64,000 bases of DNA from Dictyostelium discoideum (Eukaryota), in NCBI GenBank assembly GCA_000004695.1, contig CM000151.3:4256001-4320000 (forward strand), given 5' to 3'. Below the pieces are notes generated by a model. That model was given only the letters and a program-made list of their open reading frames with translations. It made no database searches and was not told the DNA's origin. The position numbers were made by a program, and so were the translations under genes. Below, piece by piece: positions 3,709 to 17,672 of the stretch. Position 1 is the first letter of the stretch; each line of letters begins with the position of its first letter.

Positions 3709-4491
3709 CGTTGTTGTTGTGTTTTCTTCATTTACATTTGTGTTGTTGTTTGTTTGTTTATTATGATGATTTTTAAAATGATTTTCAATATTATCAGAAA
3801 TATTATAATCAAAACAATAATAAAAGTTTGATTTTAATAAATTCTTTAAAGATTTTTTATAGGTTGATTCCATTTTACGATCATGTTCAGATAAATCGGT
3901 TGGATTATTACTAATGAGGATTAAATTACAATTTTCAATACGATAAATATATTTTCCACCAAAACTACCAATTAATTGTTTGCCAGTTATAACTATTAAA
4001 TATGGTCCTGATAATAAATTAATAATACCAACTATACCATACGCTAAAATAGATTGTTGATGTAAACTACTACTACTACTACCACTACCACTACCACTAC
4101 CACTACCACTACCACTACCACTACCACTACCACTACCACTACCACTACCACTACCACTACCACTACCTTCTTTACTATTATTTAAACCATTATTCAATTC
4201 TTTATGATTAAAACTATTAATATTGCTACTACTATTACTTCTTATACTAAAATCTACACTACTATTTAATGATACTTCACCATTACTACTATGATGATGA
4301 TGATGATGACCACTACTCTTCTTTTTAAAATCACTACTATTATTTATTAAATATTCGGTTGAATAATATTGTGATGTTATTTTAAATGTTGATCTATCAA
4401 TTACCAATGATTCAATATTTGAGTTTGTAGATGTATTAACTGAATTTGCTGGTTTAACTACGATTTTATCTTTTAATTGATAAATTGACAT
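1363..4491 (-). CDS. Sac-domain phosphoinositide phosphatase (Sac1/synaptojanin-like Sac homology domain; exons 4491..3543 and 3458..1363)
   Basis: Exon 1 has the Sac N-terminal region (ILAYGIVGIINLLSGPYLIVITGKQLIG). Exon 2 has RAGTRYNTRGSDHNGNVANYVETEQI and FSFVQTRGSIPLIWEQ. The catalytic CX5R(T/S) motif is present as RTNCLDCLDRTN. GTATGT donor after ...PLIRG and AG acceptor at 3459/3460, both phase 1. The C-terminus is Ser/Thr/Asn-rich low complexity. Confidence 0.85.
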
Positions 4492-4531
4492 AACCCTATA
4501 TAATTCTAAATAATATATGTATGAATTTTAA

Positions 4532-4651
<120 letters not shown>

Positions 4652-4664
4652 GAAATAAATAATT

Positions 4665-4899
4665 TTAAAAATATAAATTTATTTTTATGTTTAACATACC
4701 ATGATATTTAACTTTAAAATCGAATTTTTGAGAAGATTTTAGACCACCACTACCACTCATACTTGCTCTAGTATTTCCATCCATTGAAAAACTACCTCCA
4801 AAATTAATATTACCACTACTACCATTGCTAAAGTGTAAATCGCTCATATCTTCAAATGTTGAAAATTCATTACTTACTTCATCTCCACCATTATTTATA

Positions 4900-5060: not shown

Positions 5061-5272
5061 CATTTCAAATTCAAATAAATTTGAGCCACCATTATTACTA
5101 CTATTACTATCAGTTTGTAAATCTGATGTTAAACGATCAGTACTTCCCATTTTATTATTAAAAACTTTTAATAAATTTGAACTATCAGATGGTGGATATG
5201 ATGACATAACTTTACTTGATCCAAAAATTGAAACTGTTGGTTTAATACCCTCATCTTCATATGTTGTATATA

Positions 5273-5312
<40 letters not shown>

Positions 5313-5957
5313 ATTATTATTACTATTATTATTATCTATTTTTTTATTTGTTTCATTTTCATTTTCACTTTCACTATCCGAATAAATTGTTTGGGATGGT
5401 GAGAGTGGTGGTGAATTTAAGTGTAATTTATTGGATATATCACTATCTACATCGTTATTTTTATCCTTATTTTCATTATCGTCTTCATCAATATCTTCAC
5501 CTTCTTCATCATTATCATCATCATCATCTTCTTCTTCTTCTTCTTCTTCTTCATAATCATCATTTAATTGTGAATTTAAGGTTGAAGGAGGTGGTGGATG
5601 TTGAATATATACAATATTTTCTTTTGCGATTGTCAATGTTGACCTATTATTAATTTTATTTCTAATTTTAATATCATTATTGATTTGTTCTTCTTCGTTA
5701 ATATCATCATCTTCCTCCTCTTCTTCTTCTTCTTCCTCTTCCTCCTCTTCCTCTTCTTCCTCCTCATCTTCTTCATCTTCATCTTCATCTTCTTGTTTAT
5801 ATGTTTTTGGAGGGAGTGGAGGAGGAGGTGATGAAGGAGGAAAATCATTTATTGTTGGTGGTGATGTTGATTCTGTAATCCTTCTATTACCAATTGTAAT
5901 AGATGGTCTTGGATTTCCTCCAAAATTTGCACTAGATGAAAGTTTGAATGAACTCAT
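4665..5957 (-). CDS. Hypothetical low-complexity protein (poly-Asn, poly-Glu/Asp acidic tracts, Pro-rich N-terminus)
   Basis: Long minus-strand ORF from ATG (MSSFKLSSSANFGGNPRP...PPPPLPPKTYKQEDEDEDEE...). Typical Dictyostelium homopolymer-rich protein with no recognisable domain. The plus-strand ORFs overlapping it are repeat-frame artefacts. Confidence 0.4.
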
Positions 5958-6905
5958 CTTTTATTATAGTTTCTTGCTCTATAAATAGTGTTTAAATATT
6001 TTTATTTTTATTTTTTTTTTTTTTTTTTTCTATTTTTAAATTTTATATTTTTCCAAAGTACGTGTGAGTGTTTAAATTGATTGATTCAAAAATTGTGTAA
6101 CACCACTTTTTTTTTTTTTTTTTTATCGAGATTTATGCTTTATTATTACTATTATTTTTTTATTATTATTATTATAATTATTATAATTTTTTATATTGTT
6201 GTACGTAAACAAAAAAACAAAAAAAAAAAAAAAAAAAAAGACTTGTTTTTTTAGCTCATCCAAAAATAATATTGGGTCTTTTTAAAGAATCTAGTGTGCA
6301 ATAAACAAAAAAAACGTGCAAAAATTTTTTTATTTTGAATTTTCAACCATTTAAAAAAATATAAAAAAAAAATAAAAAATAAAAAAAAAAAATTCATATC
6401 CAGTGGTTTTCATTCTTCATAATTTAAAAAAAATCTTCTTTTTTGTCTTTTTTTTTTTTTTTTAGTAAAAGAAATAAAAATAATAAATATATAAAACTAA
6501 ACACATAAATAAAAAATAAATGTAAAAAATAATTATTAATAATGTATAAATAAGATTGGAAAAAATATAAATATATTTATATTTTTAACTTAAAACCTTC
6601 ATCAATATATTTTTCTCTCGAACTCGCTCTCTCACAAAAAGAAGATACATCTTAAATCTATTTTAATAAAAAGAAAAAAAAAAATTTAAACTTTTTTTAT
6701 TCCATTTTTTCAAGCCAAAAAAAAATAAAAAAAAATAAAAAAAAATAAAAAAAAAAACAAATTTAAAAAAAGATTTTTTAAAAACTAAAAATAGTTTATC
6801 TAATAGAAAAAAAAAAAAAAAAAAAAAAAACAGAATTAATGAATTACTTTTGTTAAGAAAAGTAAAGATAAAAAAATTTCCTTAATTAACATGTAATTTG
6901 TCTTC

Positions 6906-6938
<33 letters not shown>

Positions 6939-6949
6939 TTTTTTTAGAT

Positions 6950-7068
6950 TTTTTTTAAATTTAATTTTTTTTATTTTTATTTTTAATTTTTTTTTTTTTA
7001 TTTTTAATTTTTTTTAAATTTAATTTTTTTTATTTTTATTTTTAATTTTTTAGTTTTTTTTTTTCATT
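6950..7068. repeat. Tandem duplication (about 58-bp AT-rich unit x2) in the intergenic/promoter region
   Basis: The unit aaatttaattttttttatttttatttttaatttttttt occurs twice, about 58 bp apart. Confidence 0.6.
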
Positions 7069-7102
7069 TTTTTTTTTTAGGGGTCGACACCAACACAAAT
7101 TG

Positions 7103-8506
<1,404 letters not shown>

Positions 8507-8541
8507 AATAATAATAATAATAAAAAAAATAATAATTAGTA

Positions 8542-8603
<62 letters not shown>

Positions 8604-8715
8604 GATATACCTATTTATATTTACATGTCACATTATAGTCTATAATAAAAAAATAATAATAAAAAATAATAATAAAAAGTAATAATATTAATAATAATTT
8701 AATATAAGGTGGTGG

Positions 8716-8755
<40 letters not shown>

Positions 8756-8801
8756 TTTATTTATTTGTTTTATTTATTTTCATTTTAAAAAATTATTATT
8801 A

Positions 8802-10634
8802 TTAATTCGTGCAATGATGAAGATCATCAGCATATGACTCATCATTTATTTCAGTAATATTATTAATTTCATCACTTTCAATGATATCTTGTGTATCAAT
8901 TTCTACTACATTTTCACCATTACTATTATTAATATTATTACTATTATTGTCATTTGTATTATTATTATTATTATTATTAATAATTGAATTAATATTGTCA
9001 ATTAAATGATGATCATTATTATTATTATTATTTTGATGATTTTGATTATTATTTTGATGACTTATAAAACTTTCATTACTATTTACATTTGAGGTATTTG
9101 CGCTACTTATACCACTACCACCACCATCAGAACTTGCACCATCACCACCACCATTATTATTATTATGATTTAAGGTTGAAATTTTATTACAATTATTATT
9201 GTTTTTTTCAAAATTTTTATAATAATTATTATTATTAATAATATCAATGTCCGTACTTGCACCACCAACACCACCATTATTAGTAATATTTTGAAATGTA
9301 TTATTATTATTATTATTAACAATATTTAAATCATTTTCTAGAGTTGTTTCATTCTCTAAATATTCACTTTCAATTGTATCCATATCGATTGAATCCAATG
9401 TTTTTGAAGGTGTATTAAATGAATTTGTTTTTTTATTTGTTTTTGATTGTTTTTCAGCATCACCATTCTTTACAAATGAACCTTCTTTTGGTTTCATAAT
9501 AAATAATAATTCAATTACTAAAAACATTTCCATTGAATGCACAACTGCTAATAATGCAAGATTACCTTCTGGTTTTTTTGATAATCCTAAAAAAAAGAAT
9601 AATGAAGGCGGTATAATTGATGTAAATAAACTAACTGAAACTGCAACTGTAATAAAACATAACTATTTAGAAAAAAAAAAAATAATAATTATTAATATTA
9701 TTATATTTATTATTATTATTATTATAATAAATATATTATTTACTTTTCTTAAAGTTGATTTCTTTTTTCTTTTATCTTCAGGGATTAATTTAATTTTTTT
9801 AATTAATAATGAACCATAAGTTGCAAAACCAACTAAACATAAAACAATAGAAATTATAACATAAAGATTGTATGCTGTATAGAAACCTGTATTATTTTTA
9901 GTTGAATCAATATTTCCCAATATTACTCGAAATATTTCAAATAATAACCAAATTGAATTTGCAATAATAAAAATTGGTTTAGTTTTATCAATTGCTTTTC
10001 TACTTGCATGGGGTGATAATTTAATTGCTATTGAATGATATGTATGAGCCCAATATAATAATAATATTTCATATGATGTAAATAAAACATAAATTGGTAA
10101 ATTATACATAACTTCTTCACCTAATGGTGATATTAAATTACTTCTTCCAAATGGATCAAATGCAAAATATAATACTCTTACTATTATTATAAAAAAAAAA
10201 AAATTAATATGTTTATTTATATAATTATTATTATTGTTATTGTTATTTAAAAACTTACAAATTAAAAATATTAATACAACAATATGATTTATTGCTTTAA
10301 GTTTGTGTACAAGTTTATCAGTTTTCCAAAATTTAAATGATCTGTAACTTTGAATTAATGTAATTATAAAAAGTAGTGACATTACGGCAAAGAAAACATC
10401 AATGAATGCGAAATAACTACTACCTAATACATCTTCATAATGAAGTTCACATTGATTACCAACATAATAACGATTACATTTACAAATATTATTAATACAA
10501 ATACCATTACTACTACAATCAAATATTGATGTTCCATTACAATAGCCCACTGATAATTCATTAATATTATCAAAACTACCACCACCAACACCAACATCAC
10601 CAGTATTAAATGTTGTGTTTGTAGTCATTTTCAA
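8802..10634 (-). CDS. Multipass membrane protein with an N-terminal Cys-rich EGF-like module (possible TMEM8/DUF3522-type 7TM protein). Exons 10634..10259, 10180..9744, 9662..8802
   Basis: N-terminus is CNGTSIFDCSSNGICINNICKCNRYYVGNQCE (EGF-like), followed by several hydrophobic helices (FAFIDVFFAVMSLLFIITLI; IFIIANSIWLLFEIFRVILG; YVIISIVLCLVGFATYGSLLI). Two phase-compatible introns (GTAAGT...AG of 78 nt, GTAAAT...AG of 81 nt) remove a poly-N/poly-I read-through. The C-terminus is Asn-rich. Confidence 0.6.
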
Positions 10635-11603
10635 ATTTTATTTATTTATTTATTGAAAAATAATGTTTTAAAAAATAAATAATTATAATGATTTTATTTT
10701 TTTATTTATTTTATTTTTTTTTTTAATTAATTTTTTTTTTTAAACATATATTTAATTATATTTTAATATTTTTTTTAAATATTTTAATTTTTTCTCTCTT
10801 TTTCTTATTAATCAGTATGTTAAGTTTTATTTTTTTTTAATTGATATTTTAGATATTGAATTGCTTTTTCGTTTTTATATATATATGTATAAAAATAAAA
10901 AAAATATAATTTTATCTTTGTTGGTTTTAATGAATCATTTATTATTATTATTTTTAATATTTTTTACTTTTTTTTGTTTTTTTATAATTTTTATATATTT
11001 ATTAATTATTAATATTATTATTATTATTATTAATTATTTATTATTTATAATTTTTATTTTTATTTTTATTTTTATTTTTATTTTTTTTTTAATGTTATTA
11101 TTATTTTTTTTTTTTTTTTTTTCCTCAACTGTAAGTAGTTTTTTGTTTTTTTTTTGTTGTTGTTGTTGCAACACTATTCAACTAGTTGTGTTGTATATAA
11201 TATTATTATAAAATTAATTAAATAAAATATATTAGTGGTTAAAAATAAATCTTTCCTATTCAAGCCAACAAAAAAGAATAATTAATAACAACATAACCAA
11301 AATCTAATATTATATCATAATTTAAATTTTGATAATCACTCAGCTTAAAAGCCAACGGACACATACTGTCACTCACACACTCACACTAAATTTATTTTTT
11401 ATTTTCTCACCAACCACACATTTCTCTCACACACTCTATTTAACACACTGGCACAACATATGCACCCCCTCTCGCTCAATATATCATATTAACCACACTT
11501 AATAATTTTTTTTTTTTGTTATTATATATATATATATAAAGTGGGTGTTAGTGGGTGTTATTTTTATATTTACCCAAATAAAATTTATTTATTTCATTTT
11601 CAT

Positions 11604-11648
<45 letters not shown>

Positions 11649-11927
11649 AAACAAAAACAAATATAAAAAATGAGTGAGATTTTCTCATTTTTATTCTTTT
11701 ATTCTTTTATTCTTTTTTTTTTTTTTTTTTTTTAATTTTATTTCTAAATTCAATTTTATCATTTCATTTCTATTTTTATCTTTTTTTAAAAATGATTAAA
11801 AATTAAAAACAACAATATTTGAAGATTATCCAATTAAAAATAATAATAATAAAAATTTCATTTGAAATGATGATTAATTGATTATTTTAAATTTAAATAA
11901 CAGCCAAGATTTTAATATATTTTTTTT

Positions 11928-11973
<46 letters not shown>

Positions 11974-12032
11974 ATTATTTAAAAAATAAAATAAGATAAT
12001 CCAATTAATAATAAAAAAATGATTTCACATTT

Positions 12033-13330
12033 TTAAAAAAGTTTTTGAACAATTAGTAAAAATACCAATAAACATACTGGAGCTGATAAAGTTGATGATA
12101 TTGATAGGTCATTATTTGGAGATTCAGTTGGAGATGAGAGTGGTGATGCACTTGGTGATGCACTTGGTGAGGAACTTGGTGATTCACTTGGCGAAGAACT
12201 TGGTGAGGAACTTGGTGAGGAACTTGGAGAAGGTGAAACATATTGAATATATGAGACTTTTGAAGTGGTAGTGGATCCACCAATATTTAATGTTAAGATA
12301 TAATCATTACCAATTTTATTTGGTGGATATGTAATTGTGAATTTTGAATCTGCGATTGAAGAAACTGAACATAAAATATCATTTATACTAACTGATACTA
12401 ATGAAACATTATTTGTGATGAATGAGCCTTCAATATCAATTGAACCAACAATTGAATATAAAATTAAAGTCTTTTGATTAATTTTAATATATGAGAAATA
12501 ATAAAATTTCATTTCATTTGAATTTTGGTTACCAACAATAACATCAAAATCAAAATTCGAACCAGTAAGAGAGAAAAAGTAATTACCATTATCATTCAAA
12601 AAGGAATAAGATACTTTCCAATTTGGAATGATTTTGTAATTTGTGCATTTTTACCAACACCTTGAGGAGTAAAGAATGAAAATTCTGAATTAGGAATAGA
12701 CATATCTAAATCATTAACTGACCAACCTAGGTTTCTACCTGTTAAAATAAGGACTCTTCCCTCAGTTGGGAACAATTTTGTATAATTTTCAACACTTGAT
12801 TCAAACCAAACTAAAAGATATTGTATAAATATATACATTTTTTAAACTTGCTGGTAAAACAGTCGTATTTGGAACATTATTACTAAGTTGTTGTAAATTC
12901 CTATAATAATTTAGATTTTTTATTAAAAAATTAATATTAACATATAAAAAATAACCAAATTGTTGTTGTTGTTGTTGTTATTGTTATTTATGTAATTTAT
13001 AAAAAAATATTTACAAATTTTGTAATTTTTCAAATTTATACATTGATTAATAAAATGGTAAATTAAAACCAATATTTTTGCCTAAATTTATATTTGTTAA
13101 ATTTGGTAATTTGTATGAATTTGGTTCGGAATATAAATTTAATGAGGTAATAACTTGATAATTTGTTTTACGATCCACAATACATATAACGTAAGAAGAG
13201 TCACATGGATTGGAATCCTTACTAATACCATAATGAATATAACAAATCTGAAGCTAAAGATTTTTGAGTTGGTTCAACTTCACATAAATAAAAAAAATGG
13301 AAAAAATAATACTAAATATTTTCATTTTAT
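12033..13330 (-). pseudogene. Truncated, disrupted paralogue of the downstream LRR/S-P-rich GPI-type surface protein gene (lacks the LRR block)
   Basis: Homologous to 13653..16446 over the N-terminal exon, intron and C-terminal half. The N-terminal exon hits a stop early (MKIFSIIFPFFLFM*). ORFs 12596..12838 and 12033..12599 are offset by a frameshift. An internal segment (NSNNTVIINGSPYKFG...) is deleted. The C-terminus carries an SPSSSPSSS stalk plus a hydrophobic tail. Confidence 0.45.
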
Positions 13331-13652
13331 TATTATTATAAGTATTATTTTTTATTTAAAAATAAAATAAAAAATAATTTTTTTTTTTAAAGAATTTTTC
13401 TTTTTTTTTTTTTTTATTTTTTTTAATTTATTTATTTATTTAATTTTTAAATTATTTAATTATTTATTTGTTTTTTGTATGTTTATTTGTTGCTTGTTTG
13501 TTTGTTTGTTTTTTTTTTTAAAAATTATTATTTTTGTTTGTGAAGGATAAAAATTTAATAATTTCATTTATATTTTAAATTTAATAAATAATTATTTAAA
13601 AAATAAAATTTAGATAATCCAATAAAAAAAAAAAAAAGATTTAATATTTTAT

Positions 13653-15166
13653 TTAAAAAGTTTGAAAAATAAGTAAAAATACCAATAAACATACTGGAAC
13701 TGATAAAGTTGATGATATTGATAGGTGATTATTTGGAGATTCAGTTGCAGATTCAGTGGGAGATGAGCTTGGTGATTCACTTGGTGGTTCACTTGGTGAT
13801 GCACTTGGTGATGCACTTGGTGAAGAGCTTGGTGAAGAGCTTGATGAAGAACTTGGAGAAGGTGTAACATATTGAATATATGAGACTTGGGTAGTGGTAG
13901 TGGATCCACCAATATTTAATGTTAAGATATAATCTTCACCAATTTTATTTGGTGGATATGTAATTGTGAATTTTGAATCAGGGAATGTTGAACTGAACAT
14001 AAAATATCATTTATACTAACTGAAATAAATGAAAAATTATTTGTGATGAATGAGCCTTCAATATCAATTGAACCACCAATTGAATTTAAAATTAAAGTCT
14101 TTTGATTAATTTTAATATATGAGAAATAATAAAATTTCATTTCATTTGAATTTTGGTTACCAACAATAACTGAAACAGTAAATTCACCATTAGTTGCTAT
14201 TGTTGGAAAGTCAATCATAGGATATTTAATAATATGATTATTATCACCACTAATCTCTGCCTTTCCAAATTTATAAGGTGAACCATTGATAATCACAGTA
14301 TTGTTTGAATTAACATCGAAATCAAAATTTGAACCAATGAGAGAGAAAAAGCTATTTCCCTTATCATTCAAAAAGGAATACGATTTAATTGTTGGTGGAA
14401 GATAGCCATATTGGAATTGGTATGTTTTACCATTTTGGAATGATTTAGTAATTTGTGCATTTTTACCAACACCTTGAGGAATGTAGAATGAAAATTCTGA
14501 ATTTGGAATAGACATGTCCAAACCATCTACTGACCAACCTAGGTTTTTGCCTGTAAAAATAAGGACTCCACTACCATCAGTTGTGAATAATTTTGTATAA
14601 TCTTCATTAACTTCAAAATCTGAACAATTTGGCTTACTTGAGGAATCGAAATTTGAGAATGGATTTGGATGCAAATTTTGAGCATTACCATAACCAATGC
14701 AAAGAACACATTATGGTACTGTTCCATCTAATTTATTATTACTCAAGTGCAATTTTAATTTACAATATGACTCTGGAATATCACCAATAACCTAATAATA
14801 ATAATAATAATTAAAATTAAAAGAATTTAATTTTATAAAAAAAAAAAGTGAACCAACAAAATTTACTTACTAATGAACTATCTATGGAAAGATAGGTTAG
14901 ATAAGGAGCATCGTCAATATTTGGTAATGTTTGCTCGAAACGATTATTAGTAATTTGTAATGATGATAAATTTCCTAAACTAATCTTTTCAAATGGATGT
15001 GAAGAATTAGCTGTAAGATATTCTGTTTTAAAGGGAAAAAAAAACATGGTCCATTACATTGTTCAAACGATAAACCATAATCATAACGCATGGTACTTGT
15101 ATAAAATAAATGTGATATAAAAATAAATATAAATAAATAATTTTGTTGTAAATTTTGTACAACAAC

Positions 15167-15263
<97 letters not shown>

Positions 15264-16446
15264 CTACAATAATAATAGCAACTTACAATTTTAAAGGGTT
15301 AAAAACATTAATATGATAAATCTGTAAAGCCAATAGATGGATCATGGATAAAACCTTGTCCTTCAATTGTTAATATTTCAAGCATTGGTGTGTTTAATAA
15401 TATTTGTTTTAAAACATTTCAATTTCCAATACAGGTATTTTCCAAAAAATAATGACTGTTTATCTTACGTTGATTGTGTTTAATAATATTTTACTAAATG
15501 AAATACCTTGTGGTTTAGTGGTAGGAATAAAAGTAAGATAAAAAGCTATTATTTTTTGGAAAATACCTGTATTGGAAATTGAAATGTTTTGGTAACCGAC
15601 TTCCATGCCATTATATATATCCAAGCTCAAGTATTCTAAATTTGGGCACATTTCACTAATGTTTAATGGAATATTTGAATTATCTAATTTAAAACAAATA
15701 TTATTAAACACACCAATGCTTGAAATATTAACAATTGAAGGACAAGGTTTTATCCATGATCCATCTATTGGCTTTACAGATTTATCTAATTGGAAGTCCA
15801 AGTTCTCTCAAAAAAAATTCTTTTTAGTAAATTGTTGTGGTAGACTAAAACCAACAGATGGAAAAATCACTTTAAAAATTACAATACTTGATTCAAACCA
15901 AACTTTACCTAGTGGTACAGATATTGCACTGATAAACACATATTTCAAACTTGTTGGTAAAACCATATTATATGGAACGCTATTATTAAGTTGTAGTAAA
16001 AACCTGTAATAATTTGGATTTTATATTAAAATTAATTTAAAGAATAAAAAAATTGTTGTTATTTTTGTAATTTATAATATAATATTTACAAATTTTCTAA
16101 TTTTTCAAATTTATACATCGATTCATAAAATGGTATGGTAAAACCAATATTTTTGGCTATACTTAAATCTGTTAAAAAATGGTAATTTGTATAAATCTTG
16201 ATGTATTTCATAATATGAATTTGGTGGAATAATAAAATCCAATTCTGTAACAACTTCATAATTTTTTGAAGGTTCATAAACCCATTCAATGTAATAAGTG
16301 TTGCATGGATTAGAATCCTTGCTAATACCATATAATGAATATAACACATCTGAAACTATAGATTTTTGAATTGGATCAACTTCACATTGAACTAAATTTA
16401 AAATATAAATTAAAAAAATAGATAAAATGATACTAAATATTTTCAT
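13653..16446 (-). CDS. LRR-containing cell-surface glycoprotein with Ser/Pro-rich stalk and C-terminal hydrophobic (GPI-anchor-like) tail. Reading frame disrupted, so possibly a pseudogene or mis-assembled
   Basis: Signal peptide exon (MKIFSIILSIFLIYILNLVQCEV...) at 16446. LRR-like segments (LGNLSSLQITNNRFEQTLP, LKLHLSNNKLDGTVP). Conserved domain [51 protein letters not shown] stalk with hydrophobic end ...LSVPVCLLVFLLIFQTF*. Frame problems: an in-frame TAA near 14707 and a 1-nt frameshift near 13990 relative to the paralogue. Confidence 0.4.
15161..15263. repeat. (CAA)n / (TTG)n microsatellite inside the LRR gene region
   Basis: Perfect CAA run of about 34 units. Confidence 0.95.
15305..15790. 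repeat. Inverted duplication inside the LRR gene: a left arm of about 140 bp (15305..15450) is the reverse complement of a right arm (15545..15790) that also carries a roughly 100-bp insertion
   Basis: tctgtaaagccaatagatggatcatggataaaaccttgtccttcaattgttaatatttcaagcattggtgtgtttaataatatttgttttaaaac at about 15313 has its reverse complement at about 15700..15790. Both arms encode LRR-like peptide on opposite strands (ORFs 15460..15801 minus and 15605..16009 plus). Confidence 0.75.
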
Positions 16447-16481
16447 TTTATTATTATTATTATTTTTATTATTATTATTAA

Positions 16482-16548
<67 letters not shown>

Positions 16549-16550
16549 TA
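16447..16550. repeat. (ATT)n microsatellite immediately upstream of the LRR gene start
   Basis: Direct observation of ATT repeats. Confidence 0.9.
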
Positions 16551-16704
16551 TAATTTAAAATAAATTTTTTTTTTTTTTATATAAATAAAAGTAAAAAAAA
16601 AAGGAAAAGAAAAAAAAAAAAAAGGAAAAGAAAAACAAAAAAAATCATTTCACAATTAAATCAAAAAAAAAAACACCTCAAAGAACAATTTTTCTTTTTT
16701 TTCC

Positions 16705-16735
<31 letters not shown>

Positions 16736-17672
16736 ATTATTTATTAATTTGTTTATTTATTTTTTTATTTATTTGTTTATTTGTTTTTTTTTATTTATTT
16801 ATTTGTTTTTTTATTTATTTATTTATATTTATTTATTTATTTATTTATTTATTTGAAAAAGTTTTTAAAAATTTCTGTTTGATTAATTGTGTATGATAAA
16901 AATTTAATATAATTTATAATAAAATATTATCTTTTAACCAGTTAAAATTATTTTCATTTGATTATTTTCATAAAGTTATAAAGATATTTATCAAATTAAA
17001 AAAAATAAATAAAAAAATAAAAAAAAAGTATAATTCTATTTGTGATTTAAAAAATAATTTATTTTTTAGTCATTGAAAATAATTAAAAAAATTAAAAATG
17101 AAAGAAAATAATAGTTATTTTTTTTTTATTATTTAAGATTTCAAAAATATTCTCTTAATTTTAAAAAAAAAAGAAAAAAACAATGAAACAGTAATTTTAA
17201 AATAAAAAAAAAAAAAGTTAAAATAATAATAGTGGTTGTAAAAATAATAAAATTCTCAAAGATATCTTTTAAAAAATTTAATTATAATAATTATATATAA
17301 CAAAACGATTTTATTTTTGTTTATTTTTTTTTTTTTTTTTTTTTTTACTTTTCACAATGAATGACTTTGTGTTGATGGTTTTAATTAATTAAAATAATAT
17401 TATTTTTTTTTTTTTTAATAATTTTGGCCAAAATTAAAATTTTTTTTTTTTTTTTTTTTTTAATTTAAATTAATTTTTGTTTTTTTTTTTTTTATTTTTC
17501 AAAATTGATTATTTTTACAAAAACATACACACAAAAAATAAAAAAATAAAAACACATACACACATACATTCACTCATATATATACTTTACTTTTTTTTTT
17601 TTTTTTTTTTTATTATTATTAAACCTCACACTTTTTTTAATATTGCACCATTTAATAATATAATAATAAATA

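Follow-up and report, generated by a model that had tools for sequence, protein, structure and literature searches.

Within the window, a 64,000-nt stretch of the Dictyostelium discoideum AX4 genome (chromosome 2, contig CM000151.3), we found what is very probably a tandem pair of unprocessed pseudogenes, duplicated and intron-retaining, the longer of which (copy A) carries nested inverted templated insertions. Copy A, an LRR / IPT-TIG / Ser-Pro-stalk relic, spans 13653..16446 by alignment to an intact gene of the sister lineage L001, and the truncated copy B spans 12033..13325 by comparison with A; positions are those of the window, and all features lie on the minus strand unless marked otherwise. 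That these are two minus-strand paralogues, as a reading of the sequence alone had proposed, was borne out by alignment of B (11970-13467) with A (13587-16580) in three blocks of 90%, 76% and 71% identity. The signal-peptide exon, intron 1, the FYYFSYIKINQKT... domain, the SPSS stalk and the hydrophobic tail are indeed common to both copies. The COBW protein beside the pair is 100% identical to AX4 XP_644077.1, and the gene order COBW, HMG-CoA synthase, LRR-IPT gene(s) and THH1/TOM1-3 gene is the same in four other assemblies, with one copy at the locus in L003 and L005, two in AX4 and D. firmibasis, and three in L001. The D. firmibasis genes at this locus are intact (744 and 690 aa), and a 4-exon, 785-aa intact gene was reconstructed at the syntenic locus of L001, a D. 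discoideum sister lineage. In tblastn, this 785-aa relative covers both A and B; aligned exon by exon, it served as the reference for the lesion list of copy A. Since L001 has three copies, its intact gene may be a co-orthologue of copy A rather than a strict orthologue; fragment F and the intact gene M of L001 are each ~96% identical to A over the sole 90 nt common to them.

The exon equivalents of copy A lie at 16446-16090, 16003-15287, 15095-14871 and 14791-13653, and its introns 1-3 can still be aligned to the relative. Against the L001 gene, copy A carries eight disabling lesions, namely five small frameshifts, one nonsense codon and two inverted insertions in exon 2; in order these are +1 at 16179, -1 at 15816 (giving rise to a TGA at 15810-15808), +100, +86, -2 at 15312, -1 at 15041, CAA>TAA at 14711..14713 and -1 at 13993, that is, seven frame-breaking indels and one nonsense change. 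The TAA, which the sequence-only reading had placed at about 14707, sits at 14713-14711 inside a conserved VP(Q/S)C..C motif, where the relative has CAA (Gln), and the 1-nt frameshift it had put near 13990 is a 1-nt deletion at 13993 in the last IPT/TIG-like domain. Those two lesions were thus correctly seen, and the list was incomplete, lacking 16179, 15816, 15312, 15041 and the frame-breaking inserts. Divergence between A and the intact gene is flat across codon positions (0.154/0.137/0.142); the corresponding values for the neighbouring HMG-CoA synthase are 0.017/0.000/0.065. On the exons compared, the AX4 branch is 2.5x the length of the L001 branch.

Copy B has no equivalents of A's 14171-14310 and 14607-15872, a loss of ~1.4 kb. 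The early stop noted earlier in its first exon is present at codon 24 and follows a 19-nt deletion in the signal-peptide region; other lesions are a 2-nt deletion, a GAA>TAA change near 13049-13047 and, in exon 2, a deletion of 11 nt, which makes at least four on top of the large deletions. Copy B had previously been described as lacking the LRR block altogether, but it retains the first exon of the LRR region as well as the beginning of exon 2. Neither A nor B holds the intact ORF of a functional family member. As in unprocessed pseudogenes, introns and flanks have been kept, disabling mutations have accumulated, and purifying selection is not apparent. Judged by these features, both copies are dead in NC4-derived laboratory strains, and the locus would be devoid of protein-coding function in AX4, with loss of all function the likely state. 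The comparison with related dictyostelids carrying intact genes supports the process that had been suspected, pseudogenisation together with rearrangement. The further suggestion that the locus had been caught in the act did not hold as to timing: both copies are thoroughly dead, with flat codon-position divergence.

The inverted duplication in exon 2 of copy A is real and far above chance, its DNA fold reaching -163 kcal/mol (z = -28). It consists of two arm pairs, 15310-15413 with 15688-15791 (104 nt, 98% complementary, including a 99-nt stretch at 100%) and 15411-15475 with 15526-15590 (65 nt, 92% complementary, 50-nt loop). The duplicated material thus measures ~169 nt instead of the ~140 nt estimated before; it is contiguous on one side and interrupted by a 97-nt segment on the other. 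Arm C (15310..15413), which contains KQILLNTPMLEILTIEGQGFIHDPSIGFTDLS in the original coding orientation and is collinear with L001 6011-6102 and with L003, is the source of arm C' (15688..15791), a ~100-nt inverted templated insertion that is the reverse complement of 15310-15413. C' is bounded by a 10-nt direct repeat, AATTAGATAA, at 15791-15782 and 15689-15680. The second insertion, of 86 nt (15407..15492), has three parts: 17 nt that repeat the start of C in direct orientation (15492-15476), then B' (15411..15475), and AAAA; B' is an inverted copy of the original exon-2 segment arm B, NISISNTGIFQK... (15526..15590). Both insertions are absent from L001, L003 and L005, the three sister lineages compared, and are 98-100% identical to adjacent AX4 sequence. 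The inserts are hence reverse complements of nearby sequence and are derived relative to the outgroups. A (TTG)n microsatellite, (CAA)n on the plus strand, occupies 15159..15269, where it follows immediately on the GT donor (15286-15285) of intron 2, and comprises 37 units by TRF, of which 32 are pure. It had been thought to lie between the inverted arms; in fact it sits ~40 nt beyond one of them. Its L001 counterpart is (TTG)4, the AX4 array having expanded.

The anatomy of the insertions points to template switching. Copy A, which also picked up small frameshifts and the nonsense codon, would have undergone replication or break repair in which the DNA polymerase left its template, switched to the opposite strand of a segment close by and came back slightly upstream of its point of departure, which would account for the short direct duplications of 17 nt and 10 nt. 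The outcome would be a hairpin-forming palindrome with a ~169-nt stem inside a dead exon; the (TTG)n run would represent a separate microsatellite expansion in intron 2. The junctions of C' display clear microhomology, with the 10-nt flanking repeat AATTAGATAA and a shared GATAA. Those of B' comprise the 17-nt direct duplication on return and 0-3 nt of homology at departure, microhomology being weak at the left junction. Template-switch mutations of this kind, including quasi-palindrome and fold-back mutations and MMBIR/FoSTeS templated insertions, were reportedly described by Ripley in 1982, by Hastings et al. in 2009 and by Loytynoja and Goldman in 2017. In common with them, the AX4 insertions are reverse complements of sequence within ~400 bp and have short direct duplications, microhomology (clear for C', weak at the left of B'), a perfect hairpin and a derived state. 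However, such events are typically short and the inserts here are longer (65 and 99 nt), and, unlike typical template switches, two inserts are nested at one site, the second copying the junction of the first. A transposon or MITE as the source of the inverted segments was ruled out, both segments being copies of the gene's own exon 2, as was an invertible switch or phase variation, the arms bracketing no functional cassette and having the same orientation in both assemblies.

A short motif bears on the order of the two insertions. The 99-nt C' copy carries 7 nt, TTTAAAA, that are found only at the junction made by the B' insertion; C' would therefore have formed after B', or later within one multi-switch event. 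It is quite possible, if less than probable, that both insertions stem from a single multi-template-switch repair episode, MMBIR-like or fold-back in nature. The copying of the B'|C junction into C' also fits a later switch in one episode, and in L002, a second D. discoideum assembly, the two arm pairs are equally alike (98% and 98% complementarity). In AX4, B/B' is 92% and C/C' 98-100% complementary, which would instead suggest different ages, although this gap rests on five disputed bases. We regard the locus as a pair of unprocessed pseudogenes of the ordinary kind, marked by a neat scar of probable template switching. It changes the understanding of no biological system; since the laboratory-strain lineage has the nested inverted templated insertions and three sister lineages lack them, it is a clean, dated case that could be of use to work on template switching where a genome is extremely AT-rich.

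The stability of the fold just described raises the question of whether the hairpin has a function as RNA. If copy A is still transcribed, the ~169-nt stem may yield double-stranded RNA for Dicer-like processing, and the template-switch inverted duplication would then have created a small-RNA locus that is very young and specific to the strain lineage. In plants, new miRNA and siRNA genes are known to arise by inverted duplication, and Dicer-like proteins are present in D. discoideum. Allen et al. are said to have described in 2004 how young miRNA or hairpin-RNA genes are born when part of a gene is duplicated in inverted orientation, and the likeness lies in a long near-perfect inverted duplication of coding sequence within a potentially transcribed unit; copy A indeed keeps its exon 1 and the sequence on its promoter side. 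The difference is that a plausible intact target of high identity seems to be lacking here: the match of the intact AX4 paralogues to the family profile was only weak (E 1e-98 to 1e-110, cluster representatives), perfect 21-nt targets seem unlikely, and the hairpin would match mostly itself. No Rfam match at E <= 1 was obtained over 11500-17000. Argonaute proteins of D. discoideum are mentioned in PMC11014262; the locus is not. We consider such a small-RNA gene very unlikely.

The annotation of the locus gives a different picture, in which DDB_G0274529 is expressed, with odd splicing around the stops, as a shorter surface protein. Two annotation pipelines indeed provide open models, P0011 (597 aa) and P0008 (708 aa). 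The AX4 model DDB_G0274529 (597 aa) has a footprint of 13050..16389 in 8 blocks, in which every lesion is skipped and A is joined to exon 1 of B. However, the models require 7-10 introns, against 3 in the intact relatives; they leave out Cys and LRR columns that are conserved, read the inverted arm in antisense (NLDFQLDKSVKPIDGSWIKPCPSIVNISS...), and run past A's own stop into B exon 1, finishing at B's nonsense codon. The absence of codon-position bias in the substitutions also argues against a functional gene, which we find scarcely credible. The RefSeq/dictyBase protein DDB_G0274529 is very probably a gene-prediction artefact, a chimera over both relics. Re-annotation of DDB_G0274529 (AX4) and of ACTFIT_003488 (second D. 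discoideum assembly) as two pseudogenes is due, and chimeric proteins with antisense-translated sequence will contaminate family alignments. A literature search on the gene id DDB_G0274529 and on the paralogue ids found nothing. Likewise, a database look-up of the exact products of AX4 ORFs in the hairpin and exon 1 (15605-16009 on the plus strand; 15460-15801, 15460-15651 and 16123-16446 on the minus strand) found none on record.

Mis-assembly had been raised as an alternative, and Sanger coverage of the AX4 reference is no more than 8-fold (Table 1, PMC12745789). L002 is a Nanopore+Illumina de novo assembly (PMC12745789), and it aligns to window positions 22459-7008 in a single 15.4-kb match of 99.57% identity that includes both arm pairs and all eight lesions of copy A. 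The same structure in an independent long-read assembly therefore excludes mis-assembly, and it is exceedingly improbable that the inverted segment and frame disruptions are Sanger reference errors such as chimeric clones or hairpin compressions, even though AX4 and L002 differ by 12 substitutions of which five (15454, 15458, 15469, 15472 and 15492) lie close together in the B' arm and loop, where a few AX4 hairpin bases may be mis-called. A remote alternative is that gene conversion from arm to arm, over decades of growth in the laboratory, produced these five differences. From its sequence identity and from proteins identical to those of AX4, L002 is probably AX2-214, which derives from the same NC4 isolate as AX4; it supports the sequence itself and says nothing on its spread in nature.

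By sequence, copies A and B belong to a family that would comprise dictyostelid secreted or surface glycoproteins. Its layout consists of a signal peptide, a plant-type LRR solenoid, a Cys-containing cap, tandem IPT/TIG Ig-like domains, a Ser/Thr/Pro stalk and a short C-terminal hydrophobic tail. The family is uncharacterised, every member being labelled 'hypothetical protein'; named members are DDB_G0269740 and DDB_G0284073 (intact AX4 paralogues) and RB653_002084/85. Against a family profile built from P0009, P0010 and P0013, the AX4 model P0011 scores E = 1.4e-82, and E < 1e-30 is reached by 46 representatives, DDB_G0269740 and DDB_G0284073 among them. A homologue search gave one match with the 250-aa AX4 ORF and none with the antisense-arm peptide, which P0008 and P0011 do contain, so that its negatives carry no weight. 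Pfam TIG scores above the gathering cut-off in P0009 (21.3 bits), P0010 (25.2) and P0013 (22.9), and below it in the AX4 copy-B ORF (16.1 bits); Pfam LRR_14 is sub-threshold in the intact relatives, and an LRR family matches the AX4 ORF at E = 0.022, also below threshold. In a PDB profile search, plant LRR receptor-kinase ectodomains were matched at E 3e-22 to 1e-20, and Foldseek matched a structure model to the IPT tandems of Met and plexin; the model is moderate (mean pLDDT 60), and its fold matches were used for the Ig-like tandem only. The LRR and IPT/TIG assignments are thus backed by profile matches of the intact relatives. Compared with plant LRR receptors, Met and plexin, which the intact relatives resemble by profile, fold and Pfam TIG, the family has no kinase, sema or PSI domain and has a Ser/Thr/Pro stalk and a hydrophobic tail. 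That tail, ...NNHLSISSTLSVPVCLLVFLLIFQTF*, ends in a hydrophobic stretch conserved in the relatives and looks like a GPI signal, which would suggest a GPI anchor.

The Tgr proteins of Dictyostelium are described as transmembrane proteins that combine IPT/TIG, E-set and repeat domains (PMC12745789). The present family resembles them in that both are found at the dictyostelid cell surface, have Ig-like domains of the IPT/TIG type and are encoded in tandem arrays of unstable structure. By description only, it is set apart from them by an N-terminal LRR block and 2-3 Ig-like domains, the description of Tgr having no LRR block (PMC12745789). The locus also shares the essentials of birth-and-death surface-protein arrays, from which we see no essential difference: the tandem paralogues keep their introns and carry frameshifts, nonsense codons and internal deletions, and copy number varies among close relatives. 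For this uncharacterised family of LRR-IPT surface proteins, the locus documents a rapid change in copy number within the D. discoideum species complex.

The 21.8% G+C window, which belongs to chromosome 2 of Dictyostelium discoideum AX4, contains, in order, a COBW-domain gene whose product shares 100% identity with the AX4 protein XP_644077.1, HMG-CoA synthase, copies A and B, and a THH1/TOM1-3-domain gene, and this order is kept in four further assemblies. Copy A, a minus-strand LRR/IPT-TIG/Ser-Pro-stalk surface-protein gene copy, runs from an ATG at 16446 to a stop at 13655-13653; copy B, on the same strand, runs from an ATG at 13325 to a stop at 12035-12033. The pair of related minus-strand units proposed in a sequence-only reading was indeed recovered as three matching blocks of 71-90% identity (A 13587-14170, 90%; 14311-14606, 76%; 15873-16580, 71%), and copy B therefore lacks equivalents of A's 14171-14310 and 14607-15872.

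Protein searches identified syntenic loci in Dictyostelium assemblies that were deposited recently. In the sister lineage L001 (GCA_054859385.1), whose flanks are ~88-92% identical to the window, an intact gene of four exons (5124-5479, 5590-6132, 6225-6450 and 6536-7768) encodes an open 785-aa product, the length called in that assembly's own record, and the D. firmibasis locus carries two full-length genes of 744 and 690 aa. Pfam TIG scored above cut-off in three intact relatives, a profile of intact relatives matched plant LRR receptor-kinase ectodomains in the PDB (best E = 3e-22), and a moderate AlphaFold model of an intact relative (pLDDT 60) matches the IPT tandems of Met and plexin. 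The sequences show an N-terminal hydrophobic leader, a Ser/Thr/Pro stalk and a terminal hydrophobic tail, and this C-terminal tail is the one feature that suggests a putative GPI anchor. An exhaustive profile scan yielded 46 cluster representatives with E below 1e-30, every one a dictyostelid 'hypothetical protein', among them the intact AX4 paralogues DDB_G0269740 and DDB_G0284073.

Alignment of copy A to the intact 785-aa gene revealed, besides in-frame indels, eight disabling lesions: a 1-nt insertion at 16179, a 1-nt deletion at 15816 that yields a TGA at 15810-15808, insertions of 100 nt (15783-15684) and 86 nt (15492-15407), a 2-nt deletion at 15312, a 1-nt deletion at 15041, a CAA-to-TAA change at 14713-14711, and a 1-nt deletion at 13993. 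The last two are the in-frame TAA and 1-nt frameshift already noticed in the sequence-only reading, which had missed the further small lesions. Divergence from the intact gene hardly varies with codon position (0.154, 0.137 and 0.142), and that of the neighbouring HMG-CoA synthase is 0.017, 0.000 and 0.065. On its lesions, copy A is a dead gene. Copy B is, by the same kind of reading, dead as well: its signal peptide has lost 19 nt, with translation stopping at codon 24, further deletions remove 2 nt and 11 nt, a GAA codon has become TAA, and one of its two large deletions joins exon 2 (WFESS) to exon 4 (E.YTKLF). Given the lesions of both copies relative to intact relatives, pseudogenisation or rearrangement was the right interpretation. 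As far as sequence tells, A and B are an ordinary decayed tandem pseudogene pair, which bears a tidy lineage-specific palindrome of template-switch anatomy and a mis-annotated gene model.

The inverted duplication suspected within copy A is real and comprises two arm pairs. Arms C (15310-15413) and C' (15688-15791) span 104 nt at 98% complementarity, with 99 nt within at 100%; arms B' (15411-15475) and B (15526-15590; distinct from copy B) span 65 nt at 92% with a 50-nt loop. When 15300-15800 is folded as single-stranded DNA, the energy is -163 kcal/mol, versus -41.5 +/- 4.3 for shuffled sequence (z = -28). When AX4 is aligned with both L001 and the sister lineage L003, the ancestral exon-2 segment order comes out as pre-A-B-linker-C and the AX4 order as pre-C'-A-B-linker-c-B'-C. 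C' is the reverse complement of C, with the 10-nt direct repeat AATTAGATAA on both sides, and the second insertion (86 nt) opens with c, a 17-nt direct duplicate of C's start, followed by B', the reverse complement of arm B, and a terminal AAAA. The 99-nt exact match of C and C' takes in TTTAAAA upstream of CAAATATT; this motif is unique to the derived B'|C junction, the ancestral sequence having TTTAGT there, and therefore C' was copied from a template with B' already present. The anatomy suggests that both insertions would be template-switch (fold-back) copies made while the DNA was being replicated or repaired. Searches of L001, L003, L004 and L005 for a comparable inverted repeat returned only A/T-run or microsatellite matches. 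Judged from these comparisons, the insertions in copy A are derived, even if the intact L001 gene (M) is a mere co-orthologue.

The (CAA)34 repeat that had been placed between the arms is present as a trinucleotide array at 15159-15269 (37 units by TRF, 32 pure), but it lies beside the palindrome. This (TTG)n array is located in intron 2, immediately 3' of the GT donor, and L001 has (TTG)4 at the same place. Dead copy A thus has two long trinucleotide arrays, the other being a (TAA/ATT)34 microsatellite at 16448-16548, directly upstream of its ATG.

An assembly artefact could in principle account for the inverted segment and frame disruptions, as the sequence-only reading had allowed. However, L002 (GCA_054883475.1), a second D. 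discoideum assembly from a Nanopore+Illumina de novo set (Holland et al., PMC12745789), matches window 22459-7008 in a single stretch of 15,453 columns at 99.57% identity and shares both arm pairs, all eight copy A lesions and the microsatellite length with AX4. This independent recovery of the same structure makes mis-assembly highly improbable. Over the 15.4 kb, the two differ by 12 substitutions and 10 gaps, the latter mostly in homopolymers. L002 is probably AX2-214, because its encoded proteins are identical to those of AX4 and the reported AX2-AX4 identity is ~99.5% (PMC12745789). Five of the 12 substitutions (15454, 15458, 15469, 15472 and 15492) fall within a 39-bp part of arm B' and the loop, and at each the L002 base is that of the partner repeat, so that B/B' complementarity is 98% in L002 versus 92% in AX4. 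This cluster could be a reference error, a polishing artefact or arm-to-arm gene conversion.

It is also very unlikely that the locus is a functional gene as annotated. The deposited AX4 model DDB_G0274529 (597 aa) comprises eight minus-strand blocks over 16389-13050. The frameshifts in exon 1 and at 13993, the TGA and TAA codons, and the stretch that holds B', C, the microsatellite and the exon-3 frameshift all fall in its 'introns'. The model reads C' antisense, passes from copy A's tail into copy B exon 1, and ends at B's nonsense codon. The L002 model ACTFIT_003488 (708 aa) is built likewise, with lesions skipped, the inverted arm antisense and A fused to B exon 1. Both models, which avoid every lesion, are chimeric gene-prediction artefacts over pseudogenes. 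A hairpin small-RNA locus has scarcely any probability, with no Rfam match at the locus and no mention of it in a D. discoideum miRNA survey (PMC11014262).

Copy number at the locus is variable. There are three copies in L001, namely a fragment (F), the intact gene (M) and a truncated copy (T), and L003 and the sister lineage L005 have one fused copy each. In a three-taxon count over exons (window 13600-16480), unique changes numbered 171 in AX4, 68 in L001 and 101 in L005, the AX4 branch being 2.5 times that of L001; in flanking DNA the AX4 branch is shortest, and the flanks do not predict the long exon branch. This excess may stem from paralogy among the array copies or from conversion by a diverged copy. 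Given this long branch and the three L001 copies, M may therefore be a co-orthologue, not a strict orthologue, of A.

In L001, a third, heavily truncated copy (3995-4741) between HMG-CoA synthase and the intact gene still has the stalk, tail and 3' flank along with a portion of exon 4, and AX4 lacks a counterpart as a separate unit. A 340-aa gene call (8354-9575, minus strand) between the intact and truncated copies, which matches neither Pfam nor, at the DNA level, the AX4 window, may be a lineage-specific insertion. The single copies of L003 (6318-8531) and L005 (6832-9882) resemble A in their 5' part and B in their 3' part and flank, which suggests that tandem copies were joined by a deletion or an unequal crossover. 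The L005 copy also contains two in-frame stops and a partial exon 1 duplication.
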